64,000 bases of DNA. Origin: Clostridium sp. (GTDB taxonomy: Bacteria; Bacillota_I; Bacilli_A; RF39; UBA660). The DNA is taken from NCBI GenBank assembly GCA_023665725.1, contig JAMPDH010000001.1:3567-67566 (forward strand), written 5' to 3'. Every line of letters starts with the position of its first letter. Position 1 is the first letter of the stretch. This document shows, piece after piece, positions 15,015 through 50,026 of this stretch. Under the pieces are notes generated by a model. The model was not told the DNA's origin and did no database searches. It was given only the letters and a program-made list of their open reading frames with translations. The position numbers and the translations under genes were made by a program.

Positions 15015-15746
15015 ATGAAATATCTTATTACATTTTCGTATGATGGGACTTTGTTTTATGGATATCAAAAGCAATTAGAAAAAAGAACAGTACAAGGAGA
15101 AATAGAGCATGTATTGTCTAAAATATTAAATAGTAATATAAATATAAGTGCATCAGGTAGAACTGATGCTAAAGTTCATGCGTTAAACCAAAAAGCACAT
15201 TTTGAAACTTTGAAAAAGGTTAATCTAAAAAACCTAAAAAAATCAATGAATAGTTTGTTGCCTAATGATATTTATGTTAAAAAAATTAATAAAGTAGATA
15301 ATAATTTTCATGCCAGATTTAGTGTAGTTTCTAAAGAATATGAGTATAGAATTAATATTGGAGAATATAATCCATTTCTACGTAATTATGTATATCAATA
15401 TAATAAGAAAGTTAATATTAAATTAATTGAAGAAGCATCTAAATATTTTATTGGTACACACAATTTTAAAACTTTTACAAAGACAGTTGATGAAGATAAA
15501 GATTTTGTAAGAACTATAAATTATATAAAAATAAGGTGTAAAAATAAGATTTTATATATAAATATAAATGCTAATGGTTTCATGCGTTATATGGTAAGAA
15601 ATATAATTGGTACTTTGCTTGCAGTGTCTGAAGAAAAACTAAAACCTTCTGATATATTAGATTTAATTAATAAGGAAAATAGGATTTATGCTTTTAAAAC
15701 TGCAAATCCAGAGGGATTATATTTAAAAGATGTATATTATAAATAG
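15015..15746 (+). CDS. truA: tRNA pseudouridine(38-40) synthase TruA
   Basis: 243 aa; catalytic GRTDAKVHA motif. Confidence 0.85.
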   Translation: MKYLITFSYDGTLFYGYQKQLEKRTVQGEIEHVLSKILNSNINISASGRTDAKVHALNQKAHFETLKKVNLKNLKKSMNSLLPNDIYVKKINKVDNNFHARFSVVSKEYEYRINIGEYNPFLRNYVYQYNKKVNIKLIEEASKYFIGTHNFKTFTKTVDEDKDFVRTINYIKIRCKNKILYININANGFMRYMVRNIIGTLLAVSEEKLKPSDILDLINKENRIYAFKTANPEGLYLKDVYYK

Positions 15747-15832
15747 ACAATATTTATTTTCCAAAAATTGGTTTTAAAATTATCTTGCATAAATATTACT
15801 TTAATGTTATACTTTCATAAAGGTGAATTTAA

Positions 15833-16171
15833 ATGACAAAAAAGCAAGATGCTGTTTTAATGATTAAGAAAAAATTGCAGGGAGATTCCTTTTATACATA
15901 TAAAGAAATCGCAAATTTTACAGGCTATCATCCTAAATATATATTAAAGTTAAAAAAATATATAATAAATAACAACATAAGTTTAGTCCATGGTAATAAA
16001 AATAGAAAGCCGTCAAATGCTTTGAGCGAAGAAGAAAAAAACAAGATAATTAACTTATATAAAAAATCTAGTGTTAGTATACGCAAATTTTGCAAATTCT
16101 ATAGTAAAAGAAGCTATTCTTGTATTTATAATACATTGAAAACTTATGAAAAATCATTAACTAATAATTAA
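15833..16171 (+). mobile_element. Stand-alone HTH protein resembling the N-terminal domain of an IS transposase (truncated remnant?)
   Basis: 112 aa; HGNKNRKPSNALSEEEKNKIINLYKK pattern typical of a transposase N-terminal HTH; no DDE domain follows. Confidence 0.35.
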
Positions 16172-16241
16172 TGATTTTTTTGTCGATTAAAAATAAAAAT
16201 AAAAATAATATGCCTTAATATTATTTATTAGGAGGCATACT

Positions 16242-18851: not shown

Positions 18852-18944
18852 GTTATTAACTCATACTTTTTCTATTGTTTAAATTGGTAAAATATGGTAT
18901 TATTATAAAGTAACATAATGCTAACGGTGAAAAGAGGTTTTAAG

Positions 18945-19655
18945 ATGTTAGATTTTATTGTATGTGATGATAACGAATATATTAGAAAAAGTGTTAGTGA
19001 CGTCATAAACTCATATATGATGAAGAATGACCAAGCATATAAAATTAGAACTTTTTCTGATTATAATGAAGAGTTCATGGAATTGTTATCTAGTAATGGA
19101 AATTATAGGATATATATTTTAGATATAGAGGCACCAACTAAGTCGGGAATAGATGTAGCAAGAATAATTAGAAAAAAAGATAAAGAAAGTGCAATAATAT
19201 TTTTAACAGCTCACGAGGAATGTGGGTATTCTGTTTTAAAAAGTTGCACTAATTTTTTGACTTTTATTTCCAAATTTGATGATTATGAGAAAAATTTAAG
19301 TCAAGCTATCAAGGAAGCTTTAAATTTATTACACATAAAAAAAGTATTATCTTTTACTGAACATAGTGTAACTTATAATATAACAGTAAGTAATATTTTG
19401 TATGTAACTAAAGATACGTTGAGTAGGAAATCAATAATTATTACTGATAACAATATTCATAAAACATATATGACAATAACGGAACTTTTAGATAAGTTAT
19501 CACCTGTTTTTATGCAAACACATAGATCATGTATAGTGAATAAAGATAGGGTAGAAAAAATTGATAAAAATAAGAATTTAATAATTTTTGATAATGGGGT
19601 TGAAATAGATTTATTATCAGATAAGTATAAGAAGGAGTTAGTGAGTTGTGGATAA
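18945..19655 (+). CDS. LytTR-family response regulator (AgrA/VirR-like)
   Basis: receiver domain (FIVCDDNEY...D) plus C-terminal LytTR DNA-binding domain; AAGAGG SD before the ATG at 18945. Confidence 0.8.
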   Translation: MLDFIVCDDNEYIRKSVSDVINSYMMKNDQAYKIRTFSDYNEEFMELLSSNGNYRIYILDIEAPTKSGIDVARIIRKKDKESAIIFLTAHEECGYSVLKSCTNFLTFISKFDDYEKNLSQAIKEALNLLHIKKVLSFTEHSVTYNITVSNILYVTKDTLSRKSIIITDNNIHKTYMTITELLDKLSPVFMQTHRSCIVNKDRVEKIDKNKNLIIFDNGVEIDLLSDKYKKELVSCG

Positions 19656-20958
19656 AATAATATTAAATGTATTAGCAGGATTAACAGTTGGATTTGCTGA
19701 TATTTATATGTGGCATAGATTATACAATAAAAAAATAAATTTTAAAGATTATAAGCTATATATATCAATAACATTAATAGCAATAATAAGTAATTTGAAT
19801 TATTATCTTGTTAACAATTATGTAAAGATATTTTCTATAACACTATTTTGTATGTTTGTAAACGCATATTTATTTAATAAGAGGAATAACGAAATTTTAA
19901 TCGCACCAATAGTATCACAGTTTATAATATTGATTGTCGAAAGCGTTTTGATAGCGCCGTTATATTTTTTATTAGACTTTATTAATTTAAAATTAAGTAC
20001 TATATCATTTAATGCACTTTATTTAAATATCTTAATTAGTATACTTTCATGTTTGATTTCTAGATTAAAATGGCCTAGAAAATTATTTATAAAATTAGTG
20101 AAGATAACTGATAAATTAAGTGAAAGATTCTTATTTGTATTCTTAGGATTTATGGCTATAGTGTCAAATTTTTTCATAATGTTACCATATTATGAGTTGG
20201 ATTCTATATATATTGTTTGTATAAATTTTATAATAATCATTTTTTATGTATTTATAATATTTAAAATGATGGAGCAAAAAAATTCTAATATTAAAATTAA
20301 TAATAAGTATAATATAGTAAATAATACTTTAAAAGAAGTTGAACAAAATGTTACTAGACTTAAAATAACAAATCATGAAAATAAAAATCAATTGTTAACT
20401 ATTAGAAACATGTTAAAAAAGGGTGAAAAATCTGATAAAATTATGAATCATATAGATACTATAGTAAAACAAAAAGTTGAGGATGATGAAAATTTAATGT
20501 TTCAAACTTCAACTATAATGAACAGTATGATTAGCTCTATTATATATTCTAAAATGTTAACTATGAAGGAGAATAAAATAGATTCGAAACTTGTAGTAGA
20601 TAGAGATATAAGAAAATTAGACTTAGGAGAAATGGATGAAGACTTATCGGCAGAGGTTTGTAAGATTATAGGAGTTTATTTAGATAATGCGATTGAAGAA
20701 GTTATTAAACTTGATAAAAAGATAGTTAGTATAGAATTATATTGTGAAGATAAATGTTTATGCATAGATATATCTAATAATTTTGAAGGTGAAATAGATA
20801 CTGAAAAGATTAATATCCCTGGATATACTACTAAAAATGATGGTCATGGATATGGATTATCATTAGTAAAAGAAATAATTGATTCTAATCAAAACCTAAG
20901 CTCAAATTTAGAAATTAATAATGATATATTTAAACAAAAGTTAAAAATAAAAATGTAG
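19648..20958 (+). CDS. AgrC-like (HPK10) membrane sensor histidine kinase
   Basis: 436 aa; 6-7 N-terminal TM helices; C-terminal GHKL ATPase with GYTTKNDGHGYGLSLV; overlaps the RR gene by 8 nt. Confidence 0.8.
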   Translation: MDKIILNVLAGLTVGFADIYMWHRLYNKKINFKDYKLYISITLIAIISNLNYYLVNNYVKIFSITLFCMFVNAYLFNKRNNEILIAPIVSQFIILIVESVLIAPLYFLLDFINLKLSTISFNALYLNILISILSCLISRLKWPRKLFIKLVKITDKLSERFLFVFLGFMAIVSNFFIMLPYYELDSIYIVCINFIIIIFYVFIIFKMMEQKNSNIKINNKYNIVNNTLKEVEQNVTRLKITNHENKNQLLTIRNMLKKGEKSDKIMNHIDTIVKQKVEDDENLMFQTSTIMNSMISSIIYSKMLTMKENKIDSKLVVDRDIRKLDLGEMDEDLSAEVCKIIGVYLDNAIEEVIKLDKKIVSIELYCEDKCLCIDISNNFEGEIDTEKINIPGYTTKNDGHGYGLSLVKEIIDSNQNLSSNLEINNDIFKQKLKIKM

Positions 20959-20988
20959 TTTTTGCTACATTTTATTTATGCAATGCAA

Positions 20989-21102
20989 TTATTTTATTAA
21001 ACTTTTTGGGCATTCTGGTTCGTCAAATACTAGCATTAAACATGCTTGACTTCCAACTGATGCAGCCTTAAACCCTAAAAATGATAATATTGCAGATAAC
21101 AT
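20989..21102 (-). CDS. agrD: AgrD-like autoinducing-peptide precursor (37 aa)
   Basis: MLSAILSFLGFKAASVGSQACLMLVFDEPECPKSLIK; amphipathic leader, Cys-containing core, conserved acidic-Pro C-terminal recognition tail (FDEPE.PKSL); GGAGGG SD; directly downstream of agrB. Confidence 0.65.
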   Translation of the reverse strand: MLSAILSFLGFKAASVGSQACLMLVFDEPECPKSLIK

Positions 21103-21139
21103 ATAATCCCTCCTATTCTTTCTATATGTTTAAATTTCT

Positions 21140-21745
21140 TTAAACCGGATTTTCTATATATAACTTATAATTATTATATGGCATATTAAAAATTTTATAT
21201 GTAATTGGTGAAATAGTGATACATTGTGCTATTACCGCAAATATAAAACAATTTGAAATAAAATTATTTGTTATTACAAATGAAAGTATTATATAAACTA
21301 TTGCTATAAAAGTGGATAATAATTTATAAACTTTTCTTCTAGTTGGATTTATAATAGGTCTTTTATGAGTATCAGCTGGACTAAAAGCATATATATTTAT
21401 TATTCCAAGTATTCCTATTATATATTTTAAAATAGGAGAAATTTCTATGTGTAAGCTTATATATGGTACTCCAACAAATATTATTGTTGAACATACTAGA
21501 CAAATCCAACTTTTTGATGCATGTATCCCAAAAGATGGCATTCTCATTATATTATAAATAATTAGAAAAATAATTGCTTCTTTTAAGATACCTAAAAAGG
21601 CACATAGTATTAATATAATTACAAGTTTTGTAACAAGTAAATATATTGATAATAAACCATACTCTATTTGTTCAAGTTCATCTTTAGAGTATTTTTTATT
21701 TTTTTGTACTATTTCTAGACACCAATTTATTATCCAATGTTTCAT
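21140..21745 (-). CDS. agrB: AgrB accessory gene regulator B (AIP-processing membrane peptidase)
   Basis: 201 aa; polytopic; AgrB-family motif FGIHASKSWICL. Confidence 0.85.
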   Translation of the reverse strand: MKHWIINWCLEIVQKNKKYSKDELEQIEYGLLSIYLLVTKLVIILILCAFLGILKEAIIFLIIYNIMRMPSFGIHASKSWICLVCSTIIFVGVPYISLHIEISPILKYIIGILGIINIYAFSPADTHKRPIINPTRRKVYKLLSTFIAIVYIILSFVITNNFISNCFIFAVIAQCITISPITYKIFNMPYNNYKLYIENPV

Positions 21746-26085: not shown

Positions 26086-28575
26086 ATGGGTATATTAAAA
26101 AAATTATTTGATCATGAATATAAAGAATTAACCAGATTTGAAGCAATGGCTGATGAAGTTCTTGCTAAAGAAGATGAGATTTCTAAATTATCTGATGATG
26201 ATTTAAAAAATAAAACATTTGAATTTAAAGAGAGATTAAAAAATGGGGAAACAATAGAAGATATAAAAATAGATGCTTTTGCAGTTGTAAGAGAAGCTGC
26301 ATACCGTGTTATAGGTGAAAAACCTTTTAAAGTACAGGTTATAGGTGGTTTTGCACTTCATTATGGAAATATTGCAGAAATGAAAACAGGAGAAGGTAAA
26401 ACATTAACTTCTACAATGCCGGCATATTTAAATGCTCTAACAGAAGAGGGAGTTCATATAATAACCGTAAATGAATACCTTGCTGGTCGTGATGCTGAAT
26501 GGATGGGAAGTATTTATAAGTTTTTAGGGTTAACAGTTGGCGTTAACTATCGTGAATTAACTCCTGATGAAAAAAAGAAAGCATATAACTCTGATATAAT
26601 GTATTCTACTAATAATGAAGTTGGTTTTGATTATTTAAGAGATAATATGGTTGTTAGAGCACAGGATAGGGTTATGAGACCATTTAATTTTGCAATTGTA
26701 GATGAAGTTGACTCTGTTTTGATAGATGAAGCGAGAACTCCTCTTATTATTTCAGGTGGGAATATGTCTTCAGCAAATCTTTATGTTCAGGCTGATAAAT
26801 TTGCTAAAACATTAAAAGAGGGGAAAGGATATATATATGATGAACAAACTAAAGCCGTAAGCTTAGATAAAGAAGGAATTGATAAGGCTGAAAAGAATTT
26901 TAATATAAGTAATTTATATGATGTAAATAATTCTACATTGGTTCATTTTATAAACCAAGCTTTAAAGGCTAATTTCTCTATGAAAAAAGATGTAGATTAC
27001 GTTGTAGATAATGGAGAAGTTGTAATAGTTGACCCATTTACAGGACGTTTAATGAAAGGTAGAAACTATTCGGATGGTCTTCATCAAGCAATAGAAGCAA
27101 AAGAAGGAGTTCAAATTCAACAAGAAACTAAAACTTTGGCAACTATAACATTTCAAAATTTGTTTAGAATGTATAAAAAACTTTCTGGTATGACAGGTAC
27201 TGCAAAAACTGAGGAAGAGGAATTTAGGGATATATATAATATGTATGTTATATGTATACCTACTAATAAACCTGTAATAAGAGAAGATTTTAAAGATTTA
27301 ATATTTGCAAATAAGAACGCTAAATATAAGGCAATAATAAATGAAATTAAGGAAAGACATGCTAAAGGTCAACCAGTACTTGTTGGAACGATAGCTGTTG
27401 AAACAAGTGAATTAATTAGTTCTATGTTAAAAAAGGAACATATTTCTCATGAAGTATTAAATGCTAAAAATAATGCTAGAGAAGCGGAAATAATTGCAAA
27501 AGCTGGTGAAAAGGGAGCAGTTACAATAGCAACTAATATGGCTGGTCGTGGAACTGATATTAAATTAACAGATGAAGTTAAAGAACTTGGTGGATTATGT
27601 GTAATTGGAACTGAACGTCATGAGTCAAGAAGAATTGATAATCAGTTAAGAGGTCGTTCGGGAAGACAAGGCGATCCAGGGTTTTCACAATTTTGTATAT
27701 CTTTTGAAGATGAATTAATGGTTCGATTTGGAACCGAAAAAGCAAAATTAATGTTAGAAAAAGTTGGATTTGCTGGGGATTTATCTATAAGAAATGGAAT
27801 GTTATCAAAGTCTGTTGAAAGTGCTCAAAAAAGGATTGAAGGAAATAATTATGATACTCGTAAAACATTACTTCAATATGATGATGTAGTTAATCAACAA
27901 AGAGAAATAATTTATGAAAGAAGAAACGAAATATTAGATAATGAAAATATACATGAAAATGTTTTAACTTCATTTAATAATTATGCATCTTTGCAAATTG
28001 AACTTCATACAAATGATGATAATAAATTTGAGGATAATTCGTTAAGTGAACTTGTTGAAGCTGTAAATTCTTTATTAAAATCTAAACTTTCTGTTTCCGA
28101 TTTAGAAAGTTTATCAGTAGATGAAGTTAAAAATAAGGTTTATGATAGACTAGTAACAGAGTATGAAGAAAAAATAAATGAGCTTCCAGAAAATATTTAT
28201 CAAGAATTTGAAAGAGCTATATCTCTTAGAATTATAGATATGTATTGGATGGAACATATTAATACTATGGCTATTTTAAGAGAGGGAATTTATTTAAGAG
28301 GTTATGCACAAGAAGATCCATTAAGAGCTTATACAACGGAAGGTTTTGATTTATTTAATAATTTATTGGATACAATTGATAAGGAAACCGTAACGTTTTT
28401 AATGAAATCTGAGGTAAGACAAAATACTGAAAGAAAGCAAGTTGTTAAAGGTGAAGCAGCAGAGGATAGTTCCAAGTTGAAGAAACAAACACCAAAGAAA
28501 TCTGAAAAGATTGGAAGAAATGACCCATGTCCATGTGGAAGTGGTAAGAAATATAAGCAATGTTGCGGAAAATAG
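26086..28575 (+). CDS. secA: Preprotein translocase ATPase SecA
   Basis: about 830 aa; DEAD-like motor motifs; C-terminal zinc-finger tail CPCGSGKKYKQCCGK; start moved to MGILKK. Confidence 0.95.
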   Translation: MGILKKLFDHEYKELTRFEAMADEVLAKEDEISKLSDDDLKNKTFEFKERLKNGETIEDIKIDAFAVVREAAYRVIGEKPFKVQVIGGFALHYGNIAEMKTGEGKTLTSTMPAYLNALTEEGVHIITVNEYLAGRDAEWMGSIYKFLGLTVGVNYRELTPDEKKKAYNSDIMYSTNNEVGFDYLRDNMVVRAQDRVMRPFNFAIVDEVDSVLIDEARTPLIISGGNMSSANLYVQADKFAKTLKEGKGYIYDEQTKAVSLDKEGIDKAEKNFNISNLYDVNNSTLVHFINQALKANFSMKKDVDYVVDNGEVVIVDPFTGRLMKGRNYSDGLHQAIEAKEGVQIQQETKTLATITFQNLFRMYKKLSGMTGTAKTEEEEFRDIYNMYVICIPTNKPVIREDFKDLIFANKNAKYKAIINEIKERHAKGQPVLVGTIAVETSELISSMLKKEHISHEVLNAKNNAREAEIIAKAGEKGAVTIATNMAGRGTDIKLTDEVKELGGLCVIGTERHESRRIDNQLRGRSGRQGDPGFSQFCISFEDELMVRFGTEKAKLMLEKVGFAGDLSIRNGMLSKSVESAQKRIEGNNYDTRKTLLQYDDVVNQQREIIYERRNEILDNENIHENVLTSFNNYASLQIELHTNDDNKFEDNSLSELVEAVNSLLKSKLSVSDLESLSVDEVKNKVYDRLVTEYEEKINELPENIYQEFERAISLRIIDMYWMEHINTMAILREGIYLRGYAQEDPLRAYTTEGFDLFNNLLDTIDKETVTFLMKSEVRQNTERKQVVKGEAAEDSSKLKKQTPKKSEKIGRNDPCPCGSGKKYKQCCGK

Positions 28576-28621
28576 ATTAAAGCTCGTGTTTACGGGCTTT
28601 TTTAATACAATATTTTATCAC

Positions 28622-28646
28622 TAGATACAAATTTAAATACATTCTG
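28622..28646. repeat. 25-bp direct repeat TAGATACAAATTTAAATACATTCTG (copy 1; part of a local inverted repeat tagataca...tgtatcta)
   Basis: second copy at 29814-29838 (1 mismatch); the pair brackets the HD gene. Confidence 0.7.
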
Positions 28647-28780
28647 CTTGTATCTATTTTGTATCTAATTATGAAATGCAAGTAATTAAAGTCTTTATTT
28701 ATGAGGATTTTAAAGAAATTTTACCAGTGTCTAACTGATATAGGAAAATTTATGATATAATGATTATGGAGGTAGCGACA

Positions 28781-29806
28781 ATGAATCACATTGATAATAT
28801 AGATATCAGAACTAAAGAGTACTTTCAGGTGTTGGAACCAAATTTTCCAGAATGGTTAATTGAATATATAAATACACCTGAACTTTTAAAACAACAATAT
28901 ATTAGTATAACTTGTGGTACTATTTATTCTGACTTATTTGAAAGTGATTATTTCTTTTCAAGCCTTGATCATTCTGTTGCTGTTGCTTTGATTTGTTGGC
29001 ATTTTACAAATGATAAAAAAGTAACTCTAGCTGGTTTATTTCATGATATCGCAACTCCTACATTTAAACATTGCATTGATTTTTTGAATGGAGATTATAT
29101 GAATCAAGAATCTACCGAAGATTTAACAACAAAAATTATTAAAAGTTCAAAAGAGATAAAGTCTTTACTAAAAAGAGATAATATTGCTTTGGAAGAGGTC
29201 AATGATTATCATATTTATTCTATCGCAGATAATGATACCCCTAGACTATCTTCAGATAGATTAGAATATTCTTTATCAAATGCTTTATTAACATATAATT
29301 TATTAGATTTGACTTCAATTAAAGAAATTTATGATGATATAGAAATTCAAAAAAATGAAGAAGGAATAGTAGAATTAGGTTTTAAGACTATAAAAATAGC
29401 AAACAAATTTGTTGAAGTTACAAGTAAATTATCAGTTATTTATAGAGAAGATAGGACAAGATACTCAATGCAATTACTAGCTGATATCATAAAAAAATTA
29501 AATGAAGAAAAGATTATTACTATTAAAGATTTATATGATAAAAACGAAAGTGAAATTATAGATGTAATAGAAAATTCCCAATATAAAGAAATATTTGATG
29601 ACTGGAAAAATGCAAAAGCTGTAAAGATATCAAAAGAGAGACCTTTAAATGTTTATTTTGTGCATCATGGTGCTAAAGTAAGATATATTGATCCATTAGT
29701 AAATGATAAAAGAATATCAGAAATAGATGATAAGAGTAAACAAATGATTGAAAAAAACTTATCATATGATATGAGTAATTATGTCTATTTAGATTTTAAT
29801 TTCTAA
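28781..29806 (+). CDS. HD-domain phosphohydrolase family protein
   Basis: H...HD motifs (SLDHSVAVALICWH, LFHDIATP); GGAGG SD before the ATG at 28781. Confidence 0.7.
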   Translation: MNHIDNIDIRTKEYFQVLEPNFPEWLIEYINTPELLKQQYISITCGTIYSDLFESDYFFSSLDHSVAVALICWHFTNDKKVTLAGLFHDIATPTFKHCIDFLNGDYMNQESTEDLTTKIIKSSKEIKSLLKRDNIALEEVNDYHIYSIADNDTPRLSSDRLEYSLSNALLTYNLLDLTSIKEIYDDIEIQKNEEGIVELGFKTIKIANKFVEVTSKLSVIYREDRTRYSMQLLADIIKKLNEEKIITIKDLYDKNESEIIDVIENSQYKEIFDDWKNAKAVKISKERPLNVYFVHHGAKVRYIDPLVNDKRISEIDDKSKQMIEKNLSYDMSNYVYLDFNF

Positions 29807-29813
29807 AGTATTT

Positions 29814-29838
29814 TAGATACAAATTTAGATACATTCTG
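29814..29838. repeat. 25-bp direct repeat copy 2 (TAGATACAAATTTAGATACATTCTG)
   Basis: matches 28622-28646. Confidence 0.7.
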
Positions 29839-29935
29839 ATAGTGAAGCCGAATGTAACGTAGTGTTGATAAGTGTAAAAATGCGCTATTTAAAGGATAAA
29901 ATGCACAAAAGTGAAGCTAAATGAGTAGCTTTAAA

Positions 29936-29983
29936 AGTCCCCAGGGGTCTGGCAAAAAATACAAAAATTGCTGTGGTAAGTAG
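29936..29983 (+). repeat. Degenerate remnant of the secA 3' end (R1), encoding SPQGSGKKYKNCCGK*
   Basis: corresponds to the SecA tail CPCGSGKKYKQCCGK* with divergent codons; followed by the motif ataagggtttgcgaaggttt. Confidence 0.7.
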
Positions 29984-30048
29984 TAGGTTTTATAAGGGTT
30001 TGCGAAGGTTTGAAAGTCTAAAAAAAGCATAAATTAACCATAAAAATT

Positions 30049-30078
30049 GAAAAATTTCCTCATTTTGGCCTCATTTTC
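30049..30078. repeat. 30-bp direct repeat gaaaaatttcctcattttggcctcatttt (copy 1) plus hairpin gcctcatttt/aaaatgaggc (30068-30092)
   Basis: second copy at 31062-31088; the pair brackets the KilA-N gene. Confidence 0.65.
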
Positions 30079-30146
30079 AAAAAAAATGAGGCAAAGTTTA
30101 AAAAAATTAGTGAAAGGGAGTATATTATGAAAAGGGGGATTTTAAA

Positions 30147-31028
30147 TTGAAAAATGATGTAGTAACAACTGAGATTATTGTAAAAGAAAATAAAATTGGA
30201 ATAATGCGAGTTGGAAATGTCAATTATATTTCATTAACAGATTTAGCAAGATATAAAGATAAAGAACGAACTGATTATATTATTCAAAACTGGATGAGAA
30301 CAACAAATACAATATTATATTTAGGTACTTGGGAATATTTAAATAATCAAAATTTTAATTCCATCGAATTCGATGGGTTTAAAAATGAATCTGGCACCAA
30401 TGCTTTTGTAATGACTCCAAAGAAGTGGATTGTATCTACAAATGCTATTGGTATAATTTCTAAACAAGGAAGATATAATGGTGGTACTTTTGCTCATCCT
30501 GATATTGCCTTTGAATTTGCAAGTTGGTTATCACCTGAATTTAAACTATATCTTATAACTGAATTTGAAAGATTAAAGACAAATGAGGCTTATCAATATA
30601 AAATTGAATGGAGCGCAACTAGACTTTTATCAAAAGTTAATTATGTGGTTCATACAGATGCAATCAAAAAATGTATAGTTCCGACTTTAACTGAAAAACA
30701 AAAACAATTTGTTTATGCGGAAGAGGCTGATGTATTAAATGTAGCCCTATTTGGAATGACTGCAAAAGAATGGCGAGATAGTAATTCGAAATTAGCAGAG
30801 AAAGGAAATATGCGAGATTACACTGATTTACTGCATTTAGTTATATTAAATAATCTACAAAATACAAATGCTGAATTGATAGAAGAAAAAGTTTCTCAAA
30901 GAGAAAGACTGATTAGATTAAATAATTCTGCAAGAAGACAAATGGAAGCATTAAAAGATAATAAGAGCCTTAAAGATTTAGAATTATTACAAAAACAGGT
31001 TAACGAAAACAATATGATAGAACAATAA
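30147..31028 (+). CDS. KilA-N / DinD-like (phage anti-repressor-like) protein
   Basis: 293 aa; TTG start with AGGGGGA SD; N-terminal KilA-N/Bro-N-like segment (YISLTDLARY...IQNWMR); C-terminal DinD/ORF6C-like region; family call from memory. Confidence 0.5.
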   Translation: MKNDVVTTEIIVKENKIGIMRVGNVNYISLTDLARYKDKERTDYIIQNWMRTTNTILYLGTWEYLNNQNFNSIEFDGFKNESGTNAFVMTPKKWIVSTNAIGIISKQGRYNGGTFAHPDIAFEFASWLSPEFKLYLITEFERLKTNEAYQYKIEWSATRLLSKVNYVVHTDAIKKCIVPTLTEKQKQFVYAEEADVLNVALFGMTAKEWRDSNSKLAEKGNMRDYTDLLHLVILNNLQNTNAELIEEKVSQRERLIRLNNSARRQMEALKDNKSLKDLELLQKQVNENNMIEQ

Positions 31029-31061
31029 AAAGTGATACAATTAAGATAGTAAACGAATGTT

Positions 31062-31088
31062 GAAATTTTCCTCATTTTTACCTCATTT
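31062..31088. repeat. Direct repeat copy 2 (gaaattttcctcatttttacctcattt)
   Basis: matches 30049-30078. Confidence 0.65.
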
Positions 31089-31216
31089 AGGAAATAACGA
31101 ATAATACTAATAGTACTGATAATACTATAAATACGAATGTTACTTTGACCTGTATTTTAAGAAATAACAATAGTACTATAAATAACATAAATAAGGATAA
31201 TATGAGATTGTACTGA

Positions 31217-31261
31217 GCATGTGGAATTGGTAAGAAGTATAAGCAATGTTGCGGAAAATAG
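31217..31261 (+). repeat. Remnant of the secA 3' end (R2), encoding ACGIGKKYKQCCGK*
   Basis: 3 mismatches over about 45 nt versus the genuine secA 3' end; followed by aaataagggcttgtgaggttttt. Confidence 0.8.
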
Positions 31262-31688
31262 CCATAAAATAAGGGCTTGTGAGGTTTTTGCTAAAGGGAA
31301 AATCGTTAAAATTGGTAAAATGTTTGCAATTTGTTTGCAGAAAAAATAAATTGTAGATGTGAATAGCCGAAAAGCCTTTATTTTAAAGGAAAAATTATTG
31401 CAAACAATTGTTAACAAAATTATATAAATGTTAGCATTCAAAAAGTGCTAGCATTTTTTGTTTACTAACTCCACAAGAAAATGAAGTAAAATGGTGAAGA
31501 TTCGAGTCCAAAAAAAGGGGAATTCAATATAGATTTGAAATAGCACTTGGTGGTAAGAGAAAAAAATCTGGCTTTAAAACAAAAAATTAATGAATATTAT
31601 AAACAGTATTATGTGATGTAGATAAAAGCCAGTAAAAATGGTATAATTAACTCGACGATAAATAGTGATTTGAAAGTGAGGTACGAAA

Positions 31689-31856
31689 ATGAAAAATTAT
31701 ATTAAATATTTAATAAGTGCAGTAGTATTTTTTGGAGTATATATATTAGTAAATTATTTAATCGATAAAAATATTAATTGGATTATGAGCATTACAGCAA
31801 CAATAGTTTATTTGATATTTAATGTTGTATCCGTTAAGTTTGAAAATAAAAAGTAA
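31689..31856 (+). CDS. Small 2-TM membrane protein (55 aa)
   Basis: AGTGAGGT SD 7 nt upstream; hydrophobic hairpin protein; not in the ORF track because it is under 60 aa. Confidence 0.45.
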   Translation: MKNYIKYLISAVVFFGVYILVNYLIDKNINWIMSITATIVYLIFNVVSVKFENKK

Positions 31857-31897
31857 TTGCTAAATTACAATTTGTGAGTATGATTGGAGATGTAATT

Positions 31898-32545
31898 ATG
31901 GCTTTTGATTACAAGAAAGAATATAAAGAATTTTATATGCCAAAAAGTAAACCTAGTATAGTTGAAATACCAAAAATGAATTATATAGCAGTAAGAGGAA
32001 CAGGAAACCCAAATGAAAAAAATGGAGATTATCAAAATACAATAGGATTATTATATAGTATTGCTTACACGATAAAAATGAGTTATAAAGGAACTCACAA
32101 AATAGATGGATTTTTTGAATATGTTGTTCCACCATTAGAGGGATTTTGGTGGCAAGATGGAATGGAGTGTACTATTGATTATAATAATAAAAATGCCATG
32201 CACTTTATATCTATTATTAGAGTACCAGACTTTGTAACAAAAGAAGATTTTGATTGGGCAATAGATGAAGCAACAAAGAAAAAGAAGCAAGACTTTTCAC
32301 GAGTTGAATTTTTGACTTATGATGAAGGTATTTGTGTTCAATGTATGCACTTAGGTTGTTATGATGAAGAACCTACGACTGTTAATTTAATGCATGAATA
32401 TATGAGTGTAAATGGATATGAATTAGACATAACAGATACTAGATACCATCACGAAATATATTTGAGTGACCCAAGAAAATGTGATGTAAGCAAATTAAAA
32501 ACAGTTATAAGACATCCAATTAAAAAATTAAATAGCAAGTTTTAA
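31898..32545 (+). CDS. GyrI-like small-molecule-binding domain protein
   Basis: N-terminal motif FDYKKEYKEFYMPKSKPSIVEIP..YIAVRGTGNP typical of the GyrI-like/AraC-effector domain. Confidence 0.65.
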   Translation: MAFDYKKEYKEFYMPKSKPSIVEIPKMNYIAVRGTGNPNEKNGDYQNTIGLLYSIAYTIKMSYKGTHKIDGFFEYVVPPLEGFWWQDGMECTIDYNNKNAMHFISIIRVPDFVTKEDFDWAIDEATKKKKQDFSRVEFLTYDEGICVQCMHLGCYDEEPTTVNLMHEYMSVNGYELDITDTRYHHEIYLSDPRKCDVSKLKTVIRHPIKKLNSKF

Positions 32546-32558
32546 AGAGAGAAAAAAT

Positions 32559-33524
32559 ATGAATGAATTTCTTAAATTTAGTATGATTTTATTGGTAATT
32601 ATTATTTTACTGATAGTATCATTGATTATTATAAGTTTTGCTAATCATAAAATAAAATTAAAAAAAGAAAATAATTTATTTAAAACAAATGGACAAATTA
32701 TAGAGGTAAATAATCATAATATAAATATTTATATAAGTGGTAATTATAATAGTGATGTAACTTTAGTGTTTATGGCTGGAGGAGGAACTTGTTCGCCAAC
32801 TCTTGATTTTAAAACCTTGTATTCATTATTTGAAAATGATTATCAAATAGCAGTGGTGGAAAAAGCTGGTTATGGTTTTAGTGATATAAGTGATATTGAT
32901 AGAGATATTGATACAATTTTATTTGAAACAAGAGAATCACTCCATAAAGCAGGTGTAAACAATAACAAATATATTTTATTTCCTCATTCTATGTCTGGAA
33001 TTGAGGCATTATATTGGGCAAATAAATATCCAGATGAAATAAAAGGAATAATAGGATTAGATCCAGCAGTTCCTGCATCATACGAAAATATAAAAATTAA
33101 TAGTATGCTGTTCACTTTGGCAAAATTTGGAGCAGATATAGGACTTACTAGATTTATACCATCTATTGCTAATTCTTCCTCTGCAATTAAAGATGGAAAT
33201 TTAACAGATGAGGAAAAAGAATTATATAAAGTCATTTTTTATAGAAGAGCAGAAACTACTTCAATGATAAATGAAATAAAGAATATAAAAGAAAATGCTA
33301 AAAAATTAGAAAGCATTGATAGTACCAATGTGCCTATGTTGTTTTTTATATCTAATGGCGATGGAACAGGTTATGCAAAAGAAAAATGGAGAAAGTTTAT
33401 TATTGATTATATAAACAATAAACAAAACGGAGAATACAAAATTTTAGAATGTTCTCATTATGTTCATAATATAGAGTATCAAAAAATCTACAATGAAAGT
33501 ATAAAATTTATAGAAAAACTATAA
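32559..33524 (+). CDS. Alpha/beta-hydrolase fold protein, membrane-anchored
   Basis: N-terminal TM; nucleophile elbow HSMSG; C-terminal His. Confidence 0.75.
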   Translation: MNEFLKFSMILLVIIILLIVSLIIISFANHKIKLKKENNLFKTNGQIIEVNNHNINIYISGNYNSDVTLVFMAGGGTCSPTLDFKTLYSLFENDYQIAVVEKAGYGFSDISDIDRDIDTILFETRESLHKAGVNNNKYILFPHSMSGIEALYWANKYPDEIKGIIGLDPAVPASYENIKINSMLFTLAKFGADIGLTRFIPSIANSSSAIKDGNLTDEEKELYKVIFYRRAETTSMINEIKNIKENAKKLESIDSTNVPMLFFISNGDGTGYAKEKWRKFIIDYINNKQNGEYKILECSHYVHNIEYQKIYNESIKFIEKL

Positions 33525-33557
33525 TAGCAAATTACACTTTGAAAGTGAGGAGAAATA

Positions 33558-34151
33558 ATGCCTAATATTATATTTAAGGGAATAACAAAGGAAAATGATT
33601 CAATATTTGATCAGATAAATGAGAGGCCAAAAAATGCTAAAATATTGAATATACCAAAAAATAATATATTAGTATCTTTAATATTTGCAATACCATTTAT
33701 GATTTTGTGCTTTATATTGATTTATGTAAAAAAGACTATGATGAATGATTTTCCAATGATTAGACACTTTATTCCAATAGGAATTATACTTGGAATATTA
33801 TTTTGTTTTTTTCATGAACTACTACACGCAATACCACAACCGAAAGGAGCAAAAGTATATATAGGCTTTATACCTAAAAAATTTATGTTTTATATGAAAT
33901 GCAAAGAACCACTTTCTAAAAAAAGGTTTATATTAATGGAATTATTACCTATTATACTAGGAATTGTACCATTAATAATATTTATGATTTCCAACAATCA
34001 AATACTAAATTCTATTATGTGGGCTATGGCTATGATAGGCTTAGTATCACCATCTCCAGATTATTTGAATGTATATTGTGTATTAAAGGAAGTTCCAAAA
34101 GGGGCATATATACAAGATGATACTGATGGAATGTGTTGGTTTAAAAAATAA
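33558..34151 (+). CDS. DUF3267-like putative zincin membrane peptidase
   Basis: HELLHA motif within a polytopic membrane protein. Confidence 0.55.
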   Translation: MPNIIFKGITKENDSIFDQINERPKNAKILNIPKNNILVSLIFAIPFMILCFILIYVKKTMMNDFPMIRHFIPIGIILGILFCFFHELLHAIPQPKGAKVYIGFIPKKFMFYMKCKEPLSKKRFILMELLPIILGIVPLIIFMISNNQILNSIMWAMAMIGLVSPSPDYLNVYCVLKEVPKGAYIQDDTDGMCWFKK

Positions 34152-34174
34152 AAGATAAATTACAAGTTAGATTA

Positions 34175-34774
34175 TCAAATTAAAGTATCTTTTATTATAT
34201 TAATAACATATTTTTTCATTAAATCATAATTTAATTCTTGGTGTTTGTGATATACAATTTCATGGCATAAGTTATCTATAATTCCAATTATTATATGGAT
34301 TTTCTCTTTAGCATTTTCTATTTTTATTCCATTATTTTTTAATAAGTTTACAATTCTAGTAGTCATAAGTAATTCTGATTCTTTAAAAATGTTTGCTATA
34401 TCTTCGTCTAAATGTTCCATTGCTACAAGTTCTTCATGAGCTTTTTTTGATATTGTATGATTTTTGATAAGTTTATCAATCATGGTTGACATTAGATTTT
34501 CAATATTATAAATATCTATTTTTTCAGTCTCTAAAACTTGTAACATTGGATACATAATGGCGTTAGAATAGTTTTTTACACCTTCGATGAAAATTTCCTT
34601 TTTATCATTAAAATATTGATAGATAATTCCAGTAGAAACACCAGCATATTCAGCTATTTCATTTGTGTTGGTATTATAAAAACCTTTTTCACACATCAAT
34701 TCAAAACCTTTTTTAATAATTCTGTTTCGCTTTTCAATAGATCTTTTTTGTGTTGGCATTCTTGTTTCAGACAT
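34175..34774 (-). CDS. TetR/AcrR family transcriptional regulator
   Basis: N-terminal HTH NEIAEYAGVSTGIIYQYF; divergent from the ABC pump operon. Confidence 0.85.
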   Translation of the reverse strand: MSETRMPTQKRSIEKRNRIIKKGFELMCEKGFYNTNTNEIAEYAGVSTGIIYQYFNDKKEIFIEGVKNYSNAIMYPMLQVLETEKIDIYNIENLMSTMIDKLIKNHTISKKAHEELVAMEHLDEDIANIFKESELLMTTRIVNLLKNNGIKIENAKEKIHIIIGIIDNLCHEIVYHKHQELNYDLMKKYVINIIKDTLI

Positions 34775-34832
34775 AGTATTTCACCTCATATTTAATTACA
34801 TTATACATATTAAAAAAAACAAAATCAATAAT

Positions 34833-34916
34833 AATGTGATAAATTATTCATATTTTGTTGACTATCGAAATAAATAAAAGTATAATAGATGTGAAATGTG
34901 ATAAATAATTCATATT
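34833..34916. promoter_or_regulatory. Two 22-bp direct-repeat operator-like sites (AATGTGATAAATTATTCATATT / AATGTGATAAATAATTCATATT) around promoter TTGACT-N17-TATAAT (34858-34886)
   Basis: imperfect palindromes flanking and overlapping the pump promoter; the arrangement expected for a TetR operator. Confidence 0.45.
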
Positions 34917-34932
34917 GTGGAGAGGTGAAGAT

Positions 34933-35643
34933 ATGGAAGAATTAATTAAATTTAAGAATGTAAAGAAAACTTATAAAGTAGGTGAAAAATCTTTTAATGC
35001 TTTAGATGGTGCGGATTTTTCGATTAATAAAGGTGAATTTGTAGTTATTTTAGGACCAAGTGGTGCAGGGAAATCTACTCTATTAAATTTGTTAGGTGGG
35101 ATGGATAAAGTAACGAGTGGAGATATAATTGTTGGTAGTGATCATATCTCAAAATATAGTGATGAGGAATTAACTAATTATAGAGCTGAAAATGTAGGTT
35201 TTATATTTCAATTTTATAATATTTTGCCTACATTAACAGTTTTAGAAAATGTTGAACTTGTCAAAGATATTGTTAAAAGGCCTAAAAGTGCAAAACAAAT
35301 ATTAAAAGATGTTGGACTAGAAAAACATTATACTAAGTTTCCTAATCAATTATCTGGAGGAGAACAGCAAAGAGTTAGTATTGCAAGAGCAATAGCGAAA
35401 GATCCACTACTACTTTTATGTGATGAACCTACTGGTGCATTAGATTCTAAAACTGGGGTAGAAGTATTAAAACTATTAAAGAAACAATGTGATTCTAATA
35501 ATGGAGAGAATACAGTAGTAATTGTTACTCATAATGCTTTAATTGCTGAAATAGCAGATAGAGTTATAAGACTTAAAAATGGTAAAGTTGAATCAAATAC
35601 AATAAATAAAAAGCCAAAGAATATTGATGAGGTTGTTTGGTAG
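34933..35643 (+). CDS. ABC transporter ATP-binding protein (MacB/LolD/FtsE-like)
   Basis: Walker [10 protein letters not shown], signature LSGGEQQR, Walker B LLLCDEPT; GAGGTG SD. Confidence 0.9.
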
Positions 35644-38010
35644 ATGTTAAATAAAAAGTTATTTCGTGATATAAGAAACAACTTATCTCAATTTATTACT
35701 ATATTTTTAATGGTTCTAATAGGAGTTTTGGCTTACTCTGGAATAGAAGCATACATGACTGGTATGGAAAAGTCAGGAAATAAGTTTTATACTGAAAACA
35801 ATTTACAAGATATTAATGTTGTTGGTAAGTTAAATAGAGATAATGTAACTGAAATAAAAGAGTTAAATAATGTTAATGATGCAGAGGGGAAACTATCAGT
35901 AAATACAAAAATGATTAGCGATGATGACATAACACTACTCACAAATTTCATTGAATCAAATAATATTTCAAAGTTTTATATTGTTAGCGGAGAAGAATTT
36001 AGTGCAACTGATGGAATTTGGATAGATAATTTCTTTGCAGAGGAAAATAATTTAAAAGTCGGAGATATTATTAAGTTCAAGTATAATGATTATACTTTTC
36101 TAGAAAAAGTAAAAGGACTTATTAATGTTCCAGATCATTTATACGATGTAAAAGATGAATCTGAACTATATCCTAATCATAAAGATTTTGGCTTTGTATA
36201 TGTTAGTACAACTGAACTTGAGGATTATATAAAAGAAGAAATGATGAGTGAAGTTGGTATTAATTCTAAAGAAGAATTAGAGAGTGTTATGCCTAACTTC
36301 GATTATAAAGAACATTTAGTTTTTAATACCATTATGGTAGATGTGAATGATAAAAGCAAAATTAATGATTTAAAGGATAATATTGAAGAAAAAATCGAAG
36401 GAACATCTACAATAAACATAGAAGATACTTCTTCTTATAGAACATATCAGGGAGAAATAGATGAAGGCAAAACTTATGTTGGAGTATTTTCTGGATTATT
36501 TATCTTTATTGCAATACTATCAGTTATAACTACTATGACAAGAGTAGTAAAAAAACAAAGAACTCAAATAGGTACTTTAAAAGCACTAGGTTTTAAAAAT
36601 AGAAAAATAGCAATTCATTATATCAATTATGGATTCTATATCTCATTAATTGGAGCAATCTTAGGGTTAATATTAGGTTATTTTACGATTGGGAAATTAT
36701 TTATAAGCATGGAAATGACTTTCTTTGAACTTCCAAATGGAAAGCCTGTAATGAATAACAGTTCTTATATAGTTGCAGCTTTTGTAGTTTTACTTGTATC
36801 ATTAGTTACTTATTTAGCAACAAGAAAAGTATTAAAAGAAAATGCTGCTGAAACTTTAAGACAACAACTTCCAAAAGTAAAAGAAGGATCTATCAATATA
36901 ACAACAAAAGGAATATTTACTAAATGCTCTTTTTCTACTATATGGAATATAAGGGACATTATAAGAAATAAGGTAAGAACAATTACTGGTATTGTTGGAG
37001 TAGCTGGTTGTGCCATGTTAATTGTTTGTGCTATTGGCATGTTAAATAGTATGAATCACTTTATTGATTTACAATTTTCAACGCTTTATAATTTTGATTA
37101 TAAATTGAGTTTAAAAGAGAATATTAATGATAAAGAATATGATAATTTAATTTCAAAATATGGAGATAATACATCACAAACTTTACTTATTGAAACAAAA
37201 GATAATGATGGCAATAGAGAAACTAATAATATTTTTGTTACTGATGCCAATGAATATGTAAGATTTATAGATGATAAAGAGAATTTTATAGATGTTAGTT
37301 CTTCTACAGGAGTTTATATTACTAGAAAACTAGCAAGTAATATGAATTTAAAAGTCGGAGATAAAATCAAATGGCATATTTATGGAGACAATACTTATTA
37401 TGAGTCAGAAATAGTTGGATTAAATAAAGATCCACAAAATCAAAATATCACTATGACAAGAGGATATTTAGAATCTTTAAACATTGAATATAAACCTGAT
37501 TCATTATACACAAATGAAAACATTAATACAAAGGATGAAGTAGCAGGAGTAGACTTAATAAGCGATATAAATCAACTTAGAGATGGTATGGATAAAATGT
37601 TATCTACTATGAAATCAATGATTTGGTTAATTATTGGAGTAGCAATACTTTTAGGAGTTATTATAATTTACAATATGGGTATTTTATCTTATACTGAAAA
37701 ACAATATCAATTTGCGACATTAAAAGTATTAGGTTTTAAAGATAAACAAATAAGAAATATATTTATAAAACAAAATAATATAATAGCAATAATTGCAATT
37801 ATAATAGGGTGTCCTTTAGGTTTTTATTTAACAGATTGGCTATTTAAAACAGCTATTGAAGAAAGTTATGATTTTGGCGCATATATACATATTAGTACGT
37901 ATATTATTGCAGCAATCGGAACATTTTCCGTTTCTTATATTGTTTCTAAATTACTTTCTAAAAAAATAAATAAGATTGATATGGTATCAAGTTTAAAAGG
38001 AAATGAATAA
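35644..38010 (+). CDS. ABC transporter permease with two FtsX-like domains (MacB-type efflux permease)
   Basis: 788 aa; two 4-TM FtsX modules separated by a large extracytoplasmic domain; start abuts the ATPase stop. Confidence 0.85.
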   Translation: MLNKKLFRDIRNNLSQFITIFLMVLIGVLAYSGIEAYMTGMEKSGNKFYTENNLQDINVVGKLNRDNVTEIKELNNVNDAEGKLSVNTKMISDDDITLLTNFIESNNISKFYIVSGEEFSATDGIWIDNFFAEENNLKVGDIIKFKYNDYTFLEKVKGLINVPDHLYDVKDESELYPNHKDFGFVYVSTTELEDYIKEEMMSEVGINSKEELESVMPNFDYKEHLVFNTIMVDVNDKSKINDLKDNIEEKIEGTSTINIEDTSSYRTYQGEIDEGKTYVGVFSGLFIFIAILSVITTMTRVVKKQRTQIGTLKALGFKNRKIAIHYINYGFYISLIGAILGLILGYFTIGKLFISMEMTFFELPNGKPVMNNSSYIVAAFVVLLVSLVTYLATRKVLKENAAETLRQQLPKVKEGSINITTKGIFTKCSFSTIWNIRDIIRNKVRTITGIVGVAGCAMLIVCAIGMLNSMNHFIDLQFSTLYNFDYKLSLKENINDKEYDNLISKYGDNTSQTLLIETKDNDGNRETNNIFVTDANEYVRFIDDKENFIDVSSSTGVYITRKLASNMNLKVGDKIKWHIYGDNTYYESEIVGLNKDPQNQNITMTRGYLESLNIEYKPDSLYTNENINTKDEVAGVDLISDINQLRDGMDKMLSTMKSMIWLIIGVAILLGVIIIYNMGILSYTEKQYQFATLKVLGFKDKQIRNIFIKQNNIIAIIAIIIGCPLGFYLTDWLFKTAIEESYDFGAYIHISTYIIAAIGTFSVSYIVSKLLSKKINKIDMVSSLKGNE

Positions 38011-38231
38011 TTCTTACAATTTATAAAGCAAATCAAATACTTAATTAATTTTTACTTTGGGTGTATTAATTTTTGAATTATTAATAGCATAATTTAGTTA
38101 ACTTGTAGCTTTTTTCTGTCGATAGCATATATTTATTTGGCAAGCGAATTATTACAATGTTTCCATTTTTCCATTGTATGAAGTATATATAGTAGTACTA
38201 TAATTACTATATATACTAGACTAATAGAATT

Positions 38232-38273
38232 TGCGGAAGTGGTAAGAAATATAAGCAGTTTTATGGTAAATGA
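38232..38273 (+). repeat. Degenerate remnant of the secA 3' end (R3), encoding CGSGKKYKQFYGK*
   Basis: 26 nt identical to secA (gcggaagtggtaagaaatataagca), then diverged; followed by aaataagggtttccgaaagattt. Confidence 0.7.
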
Positions 38274-38668
38274 CTGTAAAATAAGGGTTTCCGAAAGATT
38301 TGATGAAATTTCTAACAGGTAGTCATTTCTCATTTGTTACCATAAATCAAACAAAAATCACTAAAACGCTAATAAATAAAGGAATGTTAACATAAATGAA
38401 ATGTTGGCATTCCCTTTTTGTTTTAGTAAAACTAATCAAAAAGGAAATAAACATAAATTAGAGTATTGTGAAACATTAGATAAAGATTATATGACTGGAG
38501 ATTATACAGATTTTGTTAAATTAATAACGGGGTTAGAAATAGAGATGTTAAATAAATACTTAGAATTATTATAGGAGCATACGATGTATGTTCTTTAAAT
38601 AGGATACTTTGAATTGATAGTAATTTAGTGTTATGGTATAATATAACTTACAGGGAGGTTAATTGTAC

Positions 38669-49586: not shown

Positions 49587-49663
49587 GGGCGATTAGCTCA
49601 GTTGGTTAGAGCACTTGCCTTACAAGCAAGGGGTCATAGGTTCGAGTCCTATATCGCCCACCA
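49587..49663 (+). tRNA. tRNA-Val (anticodon TAC)
   Basis: cloverleaf folded by hand; anticodon loop CTTACAA; 3' CCA encoded. Confidence 0.85.
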
Positions 49664-49672
49664 TTTTTATTT

Positions 49673-49748
<76 letters not shown>

Positions 49749-49756
49749 TTTTTTAT

Positions 49757-49840
49757 GGAGGGGTAGCGAAGTGGTCAAACGCGGCAGACTGTAAATCTGT
49801 TCCTTCGGGTTCGATGGTCCGAATCCATCTCCCTCCACCA
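49757..49840 (+). tRNA. tRNA-Tyr (anticodon GTA)
   Basis: anticodon loop CTGTAAA; long variable arm (class II); CCA encoded. Confidence 0.85.
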
Positions 49841-49853
49841 CTTTATTGTAGTT

Positions 49854-49928
49854 TGCCTCGTAGCCAAGCGGTAAGGCACCACACTTTGACTGTGGCATGC
49901 GCTAGTTCGAATCTAGCCGAGGCAGCCA
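49854..49928 (+). tRNA. tRNA-Gln (anticodon TTG)
   Basis: anticodon loop CTTTGAC; acceptor tgcctcg/cgaggca. Confidence 0.8.
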
Positions 49929-49950
49929 CTGTTATTATATATTTTAATAT

Positions 49951-50026
49951 GTCCCGTTAGCTCAGCAGGTAGAGCATTTGACTTTTAATCAAAGGGTCAC
50001 AGATTCGAGTTCTGTACGGGACACCA
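49951..50026 (+). tRNA. tRNA-Lys (anticodon TTT)
   Basis: anticodon loop CTTTTAA; acceptor gtcccgt/acgggac. Confidence 0.85.

Follow-up and report, generated by a model that had tools for sequence, protein, structure and literature searches.

Displaced copies of the secA 3' end bound a probable tandem array of decayed integrative elements in a low-G+C Bacilli genome

We analyzed the 3' end of secA, an essential protein-export gene, and the DNA that follows it in a 64,000-nt stretch of a Clostridium sp. genome (contig JAMPDH010000001.1; hereafter, the window), which has a G+C content of about 25%. The gene is preceded by hpf; an upstream ATG at 26065 is probably not its start, and exactly the same protein, with SecA Pfam domains that include SEC-C, is recorded for the metagenome-assembled genome (MAG) GCA_023666545.1 (contig JAMPBU010000002.1). 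Downstream of secA, three islets of genes are bounded by direct repeats of the secA 3' end, and arrays of the same kind occur in a sister species. An earlier note on this DNA had listed three such displaced tails, R1, R2 and R3; all of them were found where it had placed them, on the plus strand and in frame up to a stop codon, and the four tail copies, including the live secA end, share one orientation (Table 1). Its gene calls for the islets were likewise recovered by Pfam (HD, KilA-N, GyrI-like, alpha/beta hydrolase, DUF3267, TetR and ABC plus FtsX/MacB).

R2 differs from the secA end at three positions over 45 nt, the same count as was reported earlier, and at one position over the last 33 nt. 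For R3, 26 identical nucleotides followed by divergence had been claimed; identity was found at 25 of these 26 positions, and the match beyond them is patchy, as described. A six-frame search of the whole window for G.GKKYK..G recovered the secA end and R1-R3 with no others, and a degenerate 39-mer with up to 6 mismatches allowed matched the same four sites and had no matches in 20 shuffles. We also ran on the window an nhmmer profile made solely of tails from other genomes; the secA end scored E = 1.3e-13, the displaced tails had the values given in Table 1, and the next match after the four tails had E = 1.9. Each remnant is followed by the block ATAAGGGYTT..GA..TTT, which is absent after the live secA stop, in agreement with the related motif that had been described; at R1 the block reads TTATAAGGG, not AAATAAGGG.

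Comparison to related genomes, which had been proposed as a check, was made mainly with a sister species that is very common in human-gut assemblies; it represents the closest relatives available, with a SecA 85% identical to that of the window (related loci are designated L001, L002, etc.). In ten contigs of this species, the SecA protein (P0023) is the same and the 10 kb upstream are syntenic, but the downstream DNA is wholly different. The body of secA shows 3-9 differences per 2400 nt among these strains; from CCNTGTGG on, nearly every third codon position is changed through to the stop codon. There are 14 polymorphic sites out of 43 in the tail versus 21 out of 2444 in the rest of the gene (Fisher p = 4e-17), i.e., the per-site divergence of the tail is 59-fold above that of the body, and all changes are synonymous, leaving the protein intact at all ten loci. 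The onset of polymorphism falls at the same 8-bp position in all sister strains. From this concentration of synonymous polymorphism it follows that the last 12 codons belong to the downstream element and not to the chromosome.

The downstream DNA of the sister strains comprises an integrase followed by mostly unannotated genes, including a PemK-family toxin (L009); a 667-aa protein, a KilA-N protein and a decayed integrase (L010 and L017); an ABC transporter (L012); an eight-gene biosynthetic cluster with an integrase and a repressor beyond it (L015 and L018); or a vanG operon (L016). In this species, elements are thus present at the site in some closely related strains and absent from it in others. 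Displaced tails, always co-oriented, are found in L010/L017, L011, L012 (two), L013 and L016, their number and position varying between strains, and the metagenome contigs L146, L150 (four tails), L157 and L164 carry up to four each. It had been suggested that R1 is foreign, given its codons; consistent with this, the KKYKN codon version of the tail accompanies the KilA-N gene in three genomes, preceding it in the window (R1), in L002 (at the live secA end) and in L010/L017, which shows that the tail travels with its element. A scan of GTDB species genomes with the SecA C-terminus returned distant relatives only (50-72% identity), and these show the terminator motif and links to KilA-N, integrase and Fic genes.

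The earlier note had advised a search for recombinases beyond the window, and two families of tyrosine integrases, Int-A and Int-B (about 25% identical to each other), were indeed found beside tails in relatives, at fixed distances from the tails in more than 12 loci. The Int-B protein of L009 has 439 aa with Arm-DNA-bind_4, SAM_3 and Phage_integrase domains and is Tn916-like; its gene starts about 230 nt past the secA stop, co-oriented with secA, and its sequence, read directly, contains GLRISE, FHDFRDTHATR, LGH and NIY (the R..HxxR..Y signature). Int-B homologues with 39-73% identity are present in L005, L016, L002 and L140, and decayed copies in L010, L011, L012, L014, L016 and L017. Int-A has 376-377 aa, is encoded on the strand opposite to secA and adjoins a CI-like repressor; it occurs in L015/L018 and in five IMG/VR proviruses (L027, L028, L031, L036 and L037), with 54-95% mutual identity. 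Intact integrases of one or the other family stand beside tails in L005, L009, L015, L018, L027, L028, L031 and L037. The domain PF00589 is on record for the L009, L015, L016 and L018 integrases, and the L027 integrase matches the PHROG integrase family phrog_1 with E = 6e-63. The closest integrases of cultured phages are 30% identical to Int-A and 35% identical to Int-B. A complete example is provided by the 40-kb IMG/VR provirus UViG_3300028833_003330, which encodes an integrase, a CI-like repressor, Erf, a replisome organiser, a tail protein and an endolysin, and is flanked by a secA end that is intact and, on the other side, by a tail remnant of 16 codons; a 44-nt block is common to the two. 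The two ends share CCATGTGGCAGTGGTAA...GGTAAATA with two mismatches, and represent a textbook attL/attR pair.

At some loci, cargo lies between an N-terminal piece of Int-B (approximately aa 1-70 or 1-118) and a C-terminal piece (from approximately aa 65-69) on the same strand: the pieces are at 12598-12804 and 19935-21007 in L016 and at 10896-11129 and 12946-14004 in L005, and a piece is found at 31507-31587 in the window. A split integrase of the SSV type, with attP inside the integrase gene, was considered and rejected because the order int(N), cargo, int(C) on one strand in L016 and L005 is the opposite of the expected one, in which int(C) would lie on the left and int(N) on the right so that the circle rebuilds the gene.

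We conclude, with a probability of roughly 0.88, that positions 28.5-38.6 kb of the window consist of three or more decayed integrative elements in tandem, produced by serial site-specific integration of tyrosine-recombinase elements inside secA. This conclusion is carried by what was observed: the repeats with their statistics, the polymorphism within the population, the integrases beside tails and the prophage with its flanks. Serial integration at the secA 3' end with outward displacement of the older copy had been proposed before from the window sequence; it now has the turnover among sister strains and a prophage lying between a secA end and a remnant in its favor. Strand exchange would occur at or beside the core CCATGTGG, 37 nt ahead of the secA stop. 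The recombination core was placed at C(C)ATGTGG because the homology of displaced tails begins there in the window, L010, L011, L012, L021 and L028, and the exact cleavage points are presumed to lie at this core, which is intact at secA and R2 and mutated at R1 and R3. The last 12 codons and the stop would come with each attP as a synonymous copy of its own, and SecA would stay intact for this reason. The prior tail would be displaced distally and then decay; since older tails move outward, the order of the array should give its age, with islet 1 the newest and R3 the oldest. By analogy with the sister strains, in which the tail is replaced synonymously along with the downstream DNA, the live tail of the window was probably supplied by islet 1. 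Excision would join secA ...GACCCATGTCCATGTGG to the R1, R2 or R3 tail and the terminator block that follows it; given the intact cores at secA and R2, islets 1 and 2 would be expected to excise as one unit.

Table 1. Coordinates of secA, the displaced tails and the islet features in the window (positions are those of the 64,000-nt stretch).
Feature	Position	Strand	Remarks
secA, target gene	26086..28575	+	829 aa as called; translation
att core CCATGTGG, Pro-Cys-Gly codons of zinc finger	28531..28538	+	putative; left limit of element-supplied DNA
Live secA tail, GSGKKYKQCCGK and stop	28537..28575	+	probably supplied by islet 1 as newest element
Islet 1 left arm (P')	28576..28780	+	77% identical to arm after secA in L012
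Islet 1 left-arm terminator hairpin	28581-28606		
Islet 1 left-arm arm-type repeats TAGATAC/TAAATAC	28622, 28634; inverted copies 28650, 28661		
Islet 1 left-arm -10-like TATGATATAAT	28751-28761		
Islet 1 cargo, HD-domain protein	28781..29806	+	Pfam HD, E 4e-5; called gene in L008
Islet 1 right arm (P)	29807..29944	+	TAGATAC x2 at 29814, 29826; 82% identical to L012 right arm
R1, displaced secA tail, KKYKN version	29936..29983	+	encodes SPQGSGKKYKNCCGK and stop; core mutated to CCCAGGGG; nhmmer E 1.6e-14
Islet 2 left arm	29992..30091	+	CCTCATT at 30058, 30069; inverted copy 30085
Terminator half D6a	29992..30011		in islet 2 left arm
Islet 2 cargo, KilA-N domain protein	30204..31028	+	Pfam KilA-N, E 7e-18
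Islet 2 right arm	31029..31216	+	CCTCATT at 31070, 31081; TACTATA-type repeats 31103-31198
R2, displaced secA tail	31217..31261	+	encodes ACGIGKKYKQCCGK and stop; core GCATGTGG intact; nhmmer E 1.4e-15
Islet 3 left arm	31267..31456	+	TTTGCAA at 31323, 31334, inverted 31398; hairpin 31426-31456
Terminator half D6b	31267..31288		in islet 3 left arm
Int-B N-terminus remnant (arm-DNA-binding domain)	31507..31587	+	frameshifted, VQKKGNS / YRFEIALGGKRKKSGFKTKN; tblastn
Islet 3 cargo	31689..38010	+	55-aa membrane protein, GyrI-like, alpha/beta hydrolase, DUF3267, TetR (minus strand), ABC ATPase, FtsX/MacB permease; Pfam, called genes
Right arm before R3	38011..38231	+	AT-rich; TTTCCAT and TAGTACTATA repeats
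R3, probably oldest displaced tail	38232..38273	+	encodes CGSGKKYKQFYGK and stop; core changed to TTTGCGG; nhmmer E 1.6e-9
Terminator half D6c	38279..38300	+	after R3
Fic-family C-terminal remnant after R3	38401..38574	+	72% identity to last 39 aa of L005 Fic

The arms of the islets fit this scheme. The direct repeats in the left arm of islet 1 are 12 nt apart, the layout of this arm is the same as that of attL in the Int-A prophage, and the TAGATAC pair of the right arm lies about 125 nt ahead of the core, where its sequence and spacing match attR of the Int-A prophage in L021; islet 1 has flanks of Int-A architecture. In islet 2, the CCTCATT repeats are 11 nt apart and present at both ends, and homologues of its KilA-N gene (74-75% identity) directly follow the secA tail in L002, L010 and L017. 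Int-A belongs to temperate phages, and the arms of islet 1, with their TAGATAC sites, are of its type; Int-B is normally encoded about 230 nt past the tail and co-oriented with secA. The recombinase genes of the window would have been deleted, leaving cargo flanked by att arms and stubs of Int-B and Fic that follow R2 and R3, respectively, so the islets would be relics comparable to cis-mobilizable elements (CIMEs), i.e., elements that have lost their recombination genes. Islets 1 and 2 have the makeup of CIMEs, being without a recombinase and having matching arm repeats, phased at 11-12 nt, at both ends. Phage structural, lysis and replication genes were not found by Pfam in the islets of the window, which have only cargo-type genes and are therefore not an intact prophage; phage genes were seen only in the related loci L027 and L021.

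The statement of the earlier note that the islets contain no integrase holds for an intact gene, but a decayed Int-B N-terminus follows R2. This remnant of 27 codons shows 59-66% identity over 32 aa to the L016 and L009 integrases (tblastn, E = 0.003 versus the window) and lies about 250 nt past the R2 tail, as in L009 and L016. An intact Fic gene follows the integrase in L005, and L004 holds a Fic relic similar to that of the window; the latter would stem from a fourth, older element. It should also be noted that AT-rich (A/T)A(G/A)TACTATAAATA-type repeats are located just 5' of displaced tails in several unrelated arrays (window 31103-31198 and 38173-38213; L028 1-113; L012 15715-15760; L016 21166-21284); an accessory protein may bind them as a motif common to right arms.

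The block that follows the displaced tails, D6, has a counterpart in relatives. In the Int-A prophage and in L010, ATAAGGG-TTTGCGAG-T(n) forms the loop, the 3' stem and the T-run of a hairpin, the 5' stem of which directly follows the secA stop. The D6 block is found directly after intact secA in L001, L002 and L003, and the left-arm motif of islet 2 after secA in L004 and L005 as well. Since the block follows intact secA in relatives, it represents ancestral secA-terminator sequence; more precisely, D6 is the loop and the 3' half of this terminator, carried by most Int-B-type elements and kept in the window without its 5' stem. One of these loci, L001 (CAYXTH010000118.1, 2188 bp), is a contig of a GTDB representative labelled Muribaculaceae; it has a Bacilli-type secA end with 72% aa identity to that of the window and the same post-stop sequence as the sister-species locus L013, and is probably a mis-binned contig.

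It is conceivable, although we consider it rather unlikely, that the single-gene islets are miniature cassettes shuffled in trans by Int-A phages or Int-B elements, with the secA end as an integron-like exchange platform. In such a cassette, the left arm would provide a promoter, arm-type sites and a terminator for secA, and a single cargo gene would be followed by a right arm of about 130 nt that is conserved. The first islet of L012 has arms like those of islet 1 and holds an unrelated ABC transporter instead of the HD gene; the same arms around different cargo are an indirect hint of movement by an integrase in trans. As in integron cassette arrays, the window and L012 share arms around a single, different cargo gene, and a -10-like element stands 5' of the cargo in the left arm; unlike in integrons, there is no IntI, attC or attI, and the repeats duplicate the end of a host gene. 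Membership in integrons proper was rejected, with scores of 35-70 bits for integron-integrase models versus cut-offs of 265-435. If cassettes of this kind do exist, a platform for them in gut Bacilli already holds a vanG operon in one lineage.

Several results weigh against serial integration as the origin of the array. A truly empty site, which the earlier note had named as support for its model, was not seen in any strain examined. Exact-protein look-up of the window SecA returned a single MAG, so a second genome of the same species was not found. The use of the remnant-plus-motif unit as an attP also failed to find support: database searches recovered neither a free attP nor a circular form. 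Plasmid and phage collections gave only similarity to the KilA-N gene and distant integrases, with no attP. In a scan of viral contigs, there were no matches to the tail with ATAAGGG, none to the left-arm word of islet 1 and no Int-B relatives; the 16-mer TTAAAGGATAAAATGC had 97 matches, none with a tail by nhmmer, and is thus non-specific. A metagenome scan with the left-arm terminator word gave 29 matches, mostly without a nearby tail, six of which were informative. Within the 64-kb window, apart from the remnant after R2, there is no further integrase homologue and no intact integrase. Over 39 nt, the live tail has 2 mismatches to R2 but 9 to the L012 tail of the same arm type, and crossover does not fall at quite the same point in every case: in L016, the repeat extends past the stop to ATAAGGG. 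Finally, islet 3 has unlike left and right arms and, given this mismatch, may be composite.

The lack of an intact integrase in the window would also suit ordinary homologous recombination (e.g., after transformation) with secA and a conserved gene as flanks, the tail copies being by-products, and the small difference between the secA tail and R2 hints at gene conversion. This process is very improbable as an explanation of the locus, since all strains have the polymorphism boundary at one and the same 8-bp position, a co-oriented copy of the tail borders every islet, two integrase families lie at fixed tail distances in more than a dozen loci and a complete prophage is flanked by the repeat; tandem duplicated tails are not expected from it. 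Hardly better, and in our estimate slightly worse, are the prospects of the remnants as maintained functional units, such as SEC-C-motif peptides, small RNAs or terminators and regulators of neighboring genes. Although a 20-aa peptide could be translated from R1, which has an ATG, and the D6 block is conserved across very different genomes and forms a real terminator hairpin in some contexts, zinc ligands or the 5' part are missing from every remnant (SPQ replaces CPC in R1, R2 begins at a stop codon and R3 has FY for CC). Moreover, the tail varies only synonymously on secA and degenerates once displaced, the number and position of remnants differ between strains, and Rfam gave no match over 28.3-38.8 kb at E up to 1. 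Independent SEC-C-motif genes were rejected as a source of the remnants, which are truncated, DNA-level copies. Chance or low-complexity similarity, which has in its favor only that short AT-rich repeats are common in so AT-rich a genome, is dismissed by the absence of shuffle matches and by independent-profile E-values of 1e-9 to 1e-15, compared to 1.9 for the best background match.

Serial integration, as the preferred reading, has parallels in known systems. Temperate phages that integrate at gene 3' ends carry the replacement end in attP, and the Clostridium phage phi3626 integrates at guaA. The Int-A proviruses resemble such phages in having attL, an integrase and a repressor, a second copy of the target end at attR and arm-type repeats in phase; unlike for those phages, no deposited phage or plasmid with the secA tail as attP was found in the searches made.

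In streptococci, integrative and conjugative elements (ICEs), together with integrative and mobilizable elements (IMEs), accumulate in tandem at the 3' ends of protein-coding genes, as with ICESt1/ICESt3 at fda and with elements at rpsI, rpmG and rplL, and decay leaves CIMEs, which lack an integrase and keep attL and attR (PMC5704250, PMC5357655). The secA loci are similar in the tyrosine integrase at the 3' end of a housekeeping gene, restoration of this end by the element, tandem arrangement and integrase-less decay. They differ in that the target is secA, true phages are among the members, uncultured low-GC gut Bacilli serve as hosts, and no relaxase or conjugation genes were seen in the secA loci examined. 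The process of tandem accretion is thus already known, as the earlier note stated; its restriction to tRNA and tmRNA genes does not stand, given rpsI, rpmG and rplL (PMC5357655, PMC5704250). The target secA is the new part as far as the literature searched is concerned: it was found neither there nor in these two papers, although such absence is no proof that the site is unreported. In Prochlorococcus, tycheposons at tRNA genes are pushed deeper into their island by new arrivals (bioRxiv 10.1101/2020.12.28.424599). Partial target copies, fragmented integrases and cargo-only modules are common to both systems (10.1101/2020.12.28.424599); in contrast to tycheposons, integration here is into the end of a protein-coding sequence, for which the element supplies codons synonymously, the integrases are unrelated, and no evidence of tycheposon replication modules was found at secA.

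With secA, an essential protein-export gene joins the chromosomal docking sites. The combination of CCATGTGG, 12 synonymous codons and the ATAAGGGYTTGYGAG block provides a signature for flexible islands in poorly studied, prevalent human-gut Bacilli, and the convergence of Int-A and Int-B on the same few bases in a segment coding for a zinc finger makes the locus a useful natural system for studies of target choice. A vanG operon at the secA site in the sister species singles out the site as a route for resistance genes in gut commensals.

The cargo of related loci is diverse. In L016 (contig TAKE23-1 scaffold_1 of the sister species, 12447-21353), the vanG-type glycopeptide-resistance operon in the secA site comprises VanR/VanS-like genes, VanW, the VanG ligase (540 bits, cut-off 495), VanY, an acyltransferase and the VanT-G racemase. 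The flanks of this island are a 59-nt direct repeat with 98% identity, a similarity that points to a recent integration. Part of the same operon is also located ahead of an inner tail in L150. The cluster of L015 and L018 (12676-20307) includes, by Pfam, an ornithine/diaminopimelate (DAP) decarboxylase, a PALP enzyme, two ATP-grasp proteins, an arginase, a radical SAM protein and a GTPase; it has GGAGCCA repeats on both sides, is followed by the Int-A integrase and repressor, and may be an island for small-molecule biosynthesis. In L004 (12000-12981), about 1.3-2.3 kb past secA, there are an AbiEi-like gene, an AbiEii-looking fragment and the Fic C-terminal relic, the AbiE assignments resting on inspection of the sequences and not on a domain search. 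Much of the secA-site cargo (AbiE-like, KilA-N, HD, PemK) looks defence- or toxin-related.

Outside the array, a cluster of 12 tRNA genes is located at 49587-51179 of the window, about 11 kb past the array, with no tail or integrase signal seen near it. An agr-like quorum-sensing module is located a few kb 5' of secA (18918-21745) and consists of a LytTR response regulator, an HATPase_c_5 kinase, a gene for a 37-aa peptide and AgrB; this module is conserved in the sister species (L008-L018, approximately 4058-6866).

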